Below, in pieces: positions 14,752 through 14,844 of a DNA stretch of 15,126 nucleotides (position 1 is its first letter; each line of letters starts with the position of its first letter). The position numbers were made by a program, and so were the translations under genes. The stretch lies in the IMG/VR virus record IMGVR_UViG_3300045988_165585, one strand, 5' to 3'. Origin of the DNA: a virus. Under the pieces are notes generated by a model. It saw only the letters and a list, made by a program, of their open reading frames with translations. It had not been told where the DNA came from and did no database searches.

Positions 14752-14844
14752 TGCAGACGGCTGGATTTGAACCAGCAATAAACCATCGCTTCATTACAAT
14801 AGCGGTTTGACTGTACTAAACTTTGCCAATTAAGTTACGTCTGC
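14752..14844 (-). ncRNA. tRNA-like structured element (acceptor, D and T arms canonical; no canonical anticodon arm)
   Basis: On the minus strand, the 7-bp acceptor stem GCAGACG pairs with CGTCTGC and is followed by discriminator A. U8 is present. The D-arm is ACTT-AATTGGCA-AAGT, the T-arm is GCTGG-TTCAAAT-CCAGC, and no CCA is encoded. The central 42 nt (14777-14818) form a long imperfect hairpin instead of a 5-bp/7-nt anticodon stem-loop. It lies about 70 nt downstream of the right-ITR promoter, in the leader of the SSB/TP/polymerase operon. Confidence 0.4.

Follow-up and report, generated by a model that had tools for sequence, protein, structure and literature searches.

A tRNA-like RNA element without an anticodon arm in an exchangeable leader site of a phi29-like phage genome

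The locus described here raises the question of what use a small phage could make of an RNA that has the shape of a tRNA but no anticodon arm, carried in the leader of its first early operon. A 15-kb phage genome leaves hardly any room for extra coding sequence, and to our knowledge phi29-like phages are generally described as being without tRNA genes. A conserved tRNA mimic that is unable to decode points to a non-translational use of the tRNA shape, and this argument is strengthened by the first-transcribed position of the element and by its swapping among near-identical genomes.

The window, which is the whole stretch of 15,126 nt that was analysed, is the complete linear genome of a phi29-like podovirus with imperfect ITRs of ~210 bp. 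By comparison of both ends, the right ITR was placed at 14914..15126 (no strand) as an imperfect copy of positions 1-~213; the genome ends read alike from AGTAATAGGCGATTTTTGTCACC through ...TATATAAGTGTC, and this ITR block is also kept in the relatives L001 and L003. The structural genes encode a phi29-type major capsid protein, an upper collar connector, a lower collar and a gp9 tail knob, and a gp16-type packaging ATPase, a protein-primed family B DNA polymerase, endolysins and a holin are also present. From the right-end promoter, the minus strand carries in order a 135-aa protein, a 258-aa putative terminal protein, the polymerase, the ATPase and the tail knob. Near-identical or identical genomes recur in human-gut and sewage/wastewater assemblies, and a megablast search of GenBank phages gave no DNA-level match to the whole window. 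For comparative analysis, 80 related genomes were fetched via the polymerase, and further ones were obtained via the downstream gene and the conserved leader motif.

The tRNA-like element is 93 nt long (14752..14844, minus strand) and was defined by the Rfam tRNA model, by folding and by covariation. Against 14844->14752, Rfam RF00005 scored 44.0 bits (gathering threshold 29, E = 1.1e-6) and was aligned end to end over model positions 1-71, with ~36 nt in place of the model's 17-nt anticodon arm; with our custom model R1 the score was 79.9 bits. Read on the minus strand, a 7-bp acceptor stem (GCAGACG/CGUCUGC; 5' strand 14838-14844, 3' strand 14753-14759) is followed by U8 and A9 and by a D arm with GG in its loop (ACUU-AAUUGGCA-AAGU; 14820-14835). 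Beyond the centre come the T arm (GCUGG-UUCAAAU-CCAGC; 14760-14776) and, after the acceptor 3' strand, the discriminator A at 14752, and CCA is not encoded. With the tRNA family the element shares the score above the Rfam threshold, the 7-bp acceptor, the G18G19 D arm and the UUCRANY T loop with G53:C61. The first-pass annotation had proposed a tRNA-like element with three canonical arms on the minus strand at exactly these coordinates, and both the Rfam score and the arms read from the sequence bear this out. The Rfam models of tmRNA and pRNA gave no match, and a strict custom scanner for the top half of the molecule had 0 matches in shuffled leaders and finds the tRNA-like elements.

The centre of the element is not that of a tRNA. 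The anticodon arm (a 5-bp stem 27-43, a 7-nt loop, U33 and a 3-nt anticodon) is absent from the window element, and ARAGORN called no tRNA in the window (0 genes, including tmRNA), in agreement with the proposal that the element is non-decodable. The centre had been described as one imperfect hairpin of 42 nt, and this description has to be replaced: it consists of an unpaired linker of ~13 nt (14807-14819), a bulged 6-bp hairpin with a 10-nt loop (14782-14806; strands ACC-GCU / AGC-GAU-GGU) and UUAUU (14777-14781). In the MFE fold, the hairpin has 8 bp and a 6-nt loop. This fold retains the acceptor and T arms (z = -3.5), and the full cloverleaf, obtained with the D arm forced, lies only 1.3 kcal/mol above it, so that folding also favours the proposed structure.

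The position of the element within the transcript was then defined by the surrounding leader. Promoter scanning found one sigma-70-like promoter at the inner end of each ITR. The right-end promoter (TTGACT-17-TAGTAT; 14926..14954, minus strand) lies within the ITR, and the promoter box TTGACA-17-TAnnAT is kept in ~45 relatives. The early transcript is predicted to start near 14919-14921 (GUGUC), and since a terminator scan found none between the tRNA-like element and the first gene, the element should be co-transcribed with the operon. In the predicted leader fold (MFE and centroid), a long-range helix with its 5' strand at 14889..14911 (..AUAUUAAAGUUGUGAAGCUUCAAU..; minus strand) closes the leader, the 5' segment …GUUGUGAAGC… pairing with the pre-SD segment …GCAACCUAAUAGC… and enclosing a 14-bp hairpin and the cloverleaf. 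The hairpin (GAUGAAGCAUUGAU-GUAAUA-GUUAAUGUUUCAUC; 14851..14884, minus strand), whose 3' end is 6 nt before the cloverleaf, is unique to the window lineage, being present in 6/6 independent assemblies and having no homologue in other relatives. An equivalent closing helix (GUUGUAAGAGGUUGGG / GGUUUGCAACCUAAUAGC) is found in the consensus fold of a ~200-nt RNA carried by relatives. The 3' strand of the closing helix is the pre-SD leader motif (UUGCAACCUAAUAGCAAGAA; 14715..14734, minus strand), which was recognised by conservation and is followed by the SD AAGGAG; its consensus, UUGCWACCUAAUAGCAAGAA, is kept in all relatives, the empty-leader ones included.

Downstream of this motif, the first early gene (14295..14702, minus strand) encodes the 135-aa protein and is followed by the genes of the putative terminal protein (13491-14267) and the family B DNA polymerase (11383-13494). 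The element had been located between the right-ITR promoter and the SSB gene; the promoter within the ~210-bp ITR stands, whereas the label SSB is unproven. The protein, annotated as putative SSB-like, had no match in Pfam or PHROG and no significant one in a PDB fold search, and its sole SSB-like feature is an invariant C-terminal DDLPF that follows a disordered linker and is similar to the bacterial SSB tail. The protein has ~550 homologues and a confidently predicted beta-rich fold (pLDDT 83).

The pre-SD motif also occurs in two unrelated larger phage contigs of 90 kb and 20 kb, L239 (~6548-6567) and L241 (~3575-3594), where it lies downstream of sigma-70-like promoters. For the downstream gene family, the motif may serve as a translational operator or be bound by a protein. 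The first bases transcribed from the ITR promoter (GUGUC / GUCGAAAGGAG) are common to both genome ends (window 215-254, plus strand, for the left end). At the left end of the relatives L246 and L249, GAAAGGAG is the Shine-Dalgarno of the first gene, and at the right end the terminal helix closing the RNA cassettes takes its 5' strand from those same first transcribed bases.

Relatives of the element provide the evidence that its structure is maintained. Elements of the same type (type A) are found at the same leader site in L017, L168 (a variant of L017) and L058, with Rfam tRNA scores of 44.3 bits for L058 and 31.1 bits for L017; together with the window, this small family amounts to ~4 independent sequences. 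These were aligned with two genuine tRNA-Gly genes. In the type-A alignment, 100% of the cells of the acceptor, D and T stems are paired, and for the whole counted structure, including the central hairpin, the value is 97.5%, with 14 pairs changed on both sides. When the 3' partners were moved by 1-3 columns as a slid-register control, pairing fell to 39-52%. The acceptor and T pairings are thus kept in relatives despite changed sequence. Covariation between the window and L017 is also seen in the central hairpin (A-U to G-C, C-G to G-C and G-C to A-U), the loop form AU-NNN-AAUGA is common to both, and no type-A member has lost any of the elbow nucleotides U8, A14, G18G19, A21, UUCRANY and G53:C61. 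Within the window lineage, six independent assemblies carry the element and show just two substitutions in it, of which one lies in the D loop and the other changes C:G to U:G; the adjacent downstream protein was found in 51 data blocks.

This pattern bears on the simplest alternative, namely that the element is a functionless remnant, either a decaying captured tRNA-Gly gene or a recombination scar. Such a remnant would fit the patchy distribution of the element, its absence from near-identical siblings, its tRNA-Gly sequence ancestry and its destroyed anticodon arm, but it would not account for compensatory changes that hold three arms paired in lineages with unrelated acceptor sequences, for the covarying central hairpin, or for six assemblies that differ only by structure-neutral substitutions. 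Two further anticodon-less cloverleaf types, described below, also recur with covariation. We consider the remnant reading improbable, and judged from the covariation, selection maintains the element as a structured RNA; it is neither a cloverleaf formed by chance nor a pseudogene in decay.

The sequence of the element is far more variable than its shape. An nhmmer search with the single element against 80 relatives returned one weak match, and this result is misleading because the family was found by structure and not by sequence. With a gapped D-arm/T-loop pattern, nearly all matches in metagenome contigs were chance ones, and L168 was the sole new member among the matches listed. N73 and the acceptor end also vary, from A73 and G1:C72 in the window to U73 and A1:U72 in L017 and L058. 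These differences argue against a common aminoacylation identity set, and no conserved aminoacylation identity is apparent across the family members.

The ancestry of the element can be traced through its D and T arms. The D-arm motif TAACTYAATTGGNARAGTTT occurs at 37 sites in IMG/VR, mostly in bona fide tRNA-Gly(UCC) genes of larger phages, and the D arm (UAACUYAAUUGGNARAGUUU) together with the T arm of L017 is nearly identical to genuine tRNA-Gly(UCC). In the MAFFT alignment, the central hairpin of the window was aligned over the tRNA-Gly anticodon arm; the comparison suggests that the centre arose by an expanded loop and a 12-13-nt insertion after the D arm. The element is tRNA-derived, and in sequence it is closest to genes of the tRNA-Gly(UCC) type from low-GC Firmicutes and from phages of these bacteria. 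Among 185,579 bacterial species genomes, no bacterial copy of the window-type D arm was found, the two pattern matches being chance ones in unrelated sequence.

Compared with canonical tRNA-Gly(UCC) (RF00005), the element has the same acceptor, D arm, T arm and elbow and an above-threshold Rfam score, but it has no 5-bp/7-nt anticodon stem-loop, no anticodon, no GlyRS identity set, no encoded CCA and no ARAGORN call, and its centre measures 42 nt against the standard 23. It might still be argued that the element is a working decoder with a mini-intron or an expanded anticodon loop, used after splicing or by unusual decoding. Run in intron mode, ARAGORN reports a tRNA-Gly(GCC) with an intron of 9 nt for the L058 copy, L058 and the type-C elements described below have a 5-bp stem at the anticodon-arm position, and the MAFFT alignment given above matches the window's central hairpin with the anticodon arm of tRNA-Gly. 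However, no stem occupies the canonical position in the window or in L017, in which the loop is 10 nt long, ARAGORN gives no call for the window and 'tRNA-???' for variants, and the discriminator and acceptor pairs vary among members and do not fit GlyRS identity. The bacterial tRNA introns known to us are group I introns of >200 nt. We regard a decoding function as hardly credible. T-box activation and a role as Gly-tRNA donor for peptidoglycan were also considered and were rejected, as the element has no anticodon/specifier geometry and no GlyRS identity.

If the element does not decode, another function in a phi29-like phage would be DNA packaging, and an analogue of the phi29 pRNA was one of three roles suggested in the first-pass annotation. 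Like the phi29 pRNA (RF00044), the element is a small structured RNA by a terminus of a phi29-like phage with a gp16-type ATPase; the phage has the phi29-type capsid, connector and lower collar as well, and no pRNA was found elsewhere in its genome. A packaging RNA of this kind would dock on the connector and bridge it to the gp16-type ATPase. The closest relatives of the window speak against such a role. From 2082 to 14752, the window is collinear with L001 and L003 (full contig L247) at 93-95% identity, and this span takes in capsid, connector, ATPase and polymerase. These siblings are without exactly 14753-14916 and have 28 nt instead, and homology restarts at the discriminator base. No substitute RNA for the missing cassette was found in the sibling L247, and none of the complete contigs with empty leaders (L246, L247 and L249) has an RNA module at either terminus; in total, at least seven relatives with near-empty leaders have no RNA module at either end. 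Since a near-identical sibling has neither the cassette nor a substitute, an essential pRNA role is rejected. In addition, at E<=5 the window gave no Rfam pRNA signal, and neither did seven relatives at E<=1, no mutually complementary loop pair was seen, and the element is a four-way cloverleaf that is transcribed inward as an mRNA leader, whereas the pRNA has a three-way junction and intermolecular loops, with no match to the element in sequence or structure. A pRNA has been reported solely for Bacillus phi29-like phages (PMC11476376). The packaging reading is thus extremely unlikely, and the element is accessory and dispensable.

The empty leaders of the siblings belong to a wider pattern, in which the leader site between the promoter and the pre-SD motif is a recombination-prone site of interchangeable RNA cargo. 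In L001, L003, L014, L020, L063, L069, L029 and L278, the site holds only a 43-54-nt hairpin. Most genomes carry there an unrelated ~200-nt RNA with a three-way junction and a second multi-hairpin domain (L002, L004, L008, L010, L012, L016, L027, L067, L259 and L273; e.g. L004:38-253). The junction is closed by GUCGAAAGG/CCUUUCGA, and the RNA shows some covariation; with no Rfam match at E<=1, this is an unclassified structured RNA. Other inserts are found at the site in some relatives. The cassette type is not tracked by the sequence of the downstream protein, as expected from recombinational shuffling just inside the ITR.

Cloverleaves without an anticodon arm occur at this site in two more types. 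Type B (L017, L005, L006, L015, L024 and L025) is 106-107 nt long, with the acceptor GAAACAU/AUGUUUC, a T arm and a ~50-nt hairpin with a conserved GACGCGUC cap, and type C (L005, L006, L024 and L025) is 100 nt long with a 13-bp terminal helix from the transcript start. Pairing is 100% in both types, with 6 compensated pairs in type B and 2 in type C. Two modules stand in tandem in L017, L005, L006, L024 and L025, an arrangement that resembles a small tRNA cluster. A genuine tRNA also occupies the site: in L272, a 15.3-kb phi29-like genome (ERZ27287266 k141_286452), a tRNA-Gln(UUG) with encoded CCA (L272:329-403) is called by ARAGORN in the early leader, preceded by ~230 nt of structured leader. 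It shares the genomic site, the promoter and the D-loop type AAUUGGUA with the window element, but differs from it in having a normal anticodon arm, an encoded CCA and an ARAGORN call.

In a type-B subgroup (L006, L015 and L024; e.g. L024:171-277), the D loop is without GG (AAUAAGUA) and the T loop is changed from UUCAAUU to UGCAAGU; the two changes occur together and may represent a coordinated change of the tertiary contact between D loop and T loop. Palindromic apical sequences (AUGGCCAU in L058 and GACGCGUC in type B) were considered as dimerisation signals and rejected: the window loop is not palindromic, so a palindromic apical sequence is not a feature of the family.

With packaging set aside, two of the three suggested roles remain, and that of an RNase P/RNase Z processing signal appears to be the best supported. 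The anticodon arm is not required by RNase P, RNase Z or the CCA-adding enzyme, for which the acceptor/T minihelix and the elbow are sufficient; these enzymes read the 12-bp acceptor/T stack, the elbow and positions -1, +1:72 and 73. The window has these determinants in the form of U-1, G1:C72, A73, the 12-bp stack, the elbow and the missing CCA. The determinants are conserved and under selection, whereas the decoding part of the tRNA has been lost. In the proposed pathway, the early transcript would start ~77 nt upstream of the element, RNase P would cut at G1 (in the context of U-1, G1:C72 and A73), RNase Z would cut after A73 for want of an encoded CCA, and the 3' end would then be completed by the CCA-adding enzyme. 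The products would be a ~77-nt 5' fragment with the 14-bp hairpin, a stable tRNA-like RNA of ~96 nt, and the early replication mRNA, whose new 5' end would lie ~49 nt before the start codon. In L272, the tRNA enzymes must mature the genuine tRNA that stands at this leader position, and the simplest assumption is that the element would be excised likewise.

Several features, however, do not fit excision easily. In L017, L058 and L005, the acceptor helix is 11-13 bp long and reaches the predicted transcript start; such leader-trailer pairing is unfavourable for RNase P, and the extended helices look more like a 5'-terminal protective stem. Moreover, the RNase Z cut would leave an mRNA with a 5'-monophosphate, which could destabilise it in Firmicutes. 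The alternative is that the cloverleaf stays in the leader and acts in cis as a folded domain near the 5' end. It would shield the early mRNA from decay that depends on the 5' end (RNase J1/Y type) or, by way of the closing helix beside the SD, would tune how the first gene is translated. In every leader variant a helix lies at the predicted start or a few nt from it, for example GUCAG..CUGAC in L001/L003, UAAAGG..CCUUUA in L014 and GUCGAAAGG..CCUUUCGA in most others, and in L017, L058 and L005 the 'acceptor' is this terminal helix; in the window, the leader pairs with the conserved pre-SD motif. A stabiliser stem would need none of G18G19, UUCRANY, G53:C61, U8 and the exact 7+5-bp stack, all of which are kept across lineages, and the window acceptor is exactly 7 bp long with unpaired flanks, 77 nt from the predicted start. 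The siblings express the same operon without the element, and L272 has a genuine tRNA at the same place. Weighing these points, we consider a cis-acting leader possible but doubtful. That the element is a non-decoding tRNA mimic excised from the leader by host RNase P, RNase Z and CCA-adding enzyme is a reading that we hold with belief and doubt in about equal measure.

The third suggested role, a tRNA mimic or recruiter of a host factor, is compatible with these data and would concern the fate of the excised RNA. Since the released RNA could not decode and has no conserved aminoacylation identity, it would most plausibly act in trans and titrate, like a decoy or sponge, a host factor recognising the tRNA shape, and this is the least certain step of the pathway. 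Going further, small gut phi29-like phages could keep a dedicated and rapidly exchanging RNA cargo bay as the first-transcribed part of the genome end, filled with anticodon-less mimics of three or more structural types, with other structured RNAs or with real tRNAs. The mimics could then be trans-acting counter-defence or takeover RNAs that the tRNA-processing enzymes of the host would excise, serving as uncleavable decoys that titrate a factor reading the tRNA shape; a tRNA-targeting immune nuclease may be an example of such a target. We consider this extension speculative and unlikely as it stands. PADLOC found no defence or anti-defence protein among the neighbours of the element, and a search of the phage genome for an antisense target of the element's unpaired centre found none beyond the element itself.

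Known non-decoding tRNA mimics provide a frame for these proposals. The mascRNA of MALAT1 and the tRNA-like/pre-miRNA units of murid herpesvirus 68 are non-aminoacylated modules within longer transcripts, which are recognised by RNase P and/or RNase Z and set the ends of neighbouring RNAs. The window has a similar layout of upstream hairpin, tRNA-like element and downstream RNA, but those systems are eukaryotic or herpesviral, whereas here the virus is bacterial, the downstream RNA is an mRNA and the processing is proposed from the sequence. The tRNA-like domains of YrlA, a bacterial Y RNA, and of tmRNA are also non-decoding and keep the elbow and T arm without an anticodon. YrlA differs in being permuted, with its ends on the anticodon-stem side and a loop-closed acceptor, and tmRNA differs in having a tag reading frame and pseudoknots; neither family gave an Rfam or ARAGORN match in the window. 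We believe that the element belongs with the non-decoding tRNA mimics, among which it is notable for its swappable cassette site in a minimal phage genome. If the processing reading alone is true, the element would be a bacterial-virus counterpart of mascRNA-type punctuation, and if the decoy reading is true, an RNA-only class would be added to phage counter-defence. Either way, the site is a hotspot for mining new structured RNAs. Variants with and without the cassette coexist in the same metagenomes, and because such natural variants exist, the function can be tested directly once a host is found.

Elsewhere in the genome, three minor observations concern the ITRs and the structural genes. 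Four iterated copies of TTATGTAAAC (or TTATGTAACC) lie 12-15 nt apart in the ITR (window 20-80, mirrored at 15047-15107) and are candidate binding sites for a replication-origin protein. The connector gene (window 4870-5791, plus strand) is split: the ORF 4870-5355 corresponds to profile positions 16-173, and a second frame, open from before 5300 to 5791, corresponds to positions 239-283, the two frames overlapping near A-rich runs (GGAAAACAAAAACGGAAAAAG). The identical split is present in the independent sibling assembly L247 (9340-10261, minus strand), so the split may reflect a programmed frameshift and not a fault of assembly. The apparent gap at 5356-5512 was considered as an RNA gene and ruled out, as it is coding sequence of the frame-shifted connector gene. 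Finally, the 632-aa tail protein (window 6553-8451, plus strand) contains a metallo-beta-lactamase-fold segment (Pfam Lactamase_B, residues 147-199, E = 3e-7), which is an unusual domain in a phi29-like tail protein.
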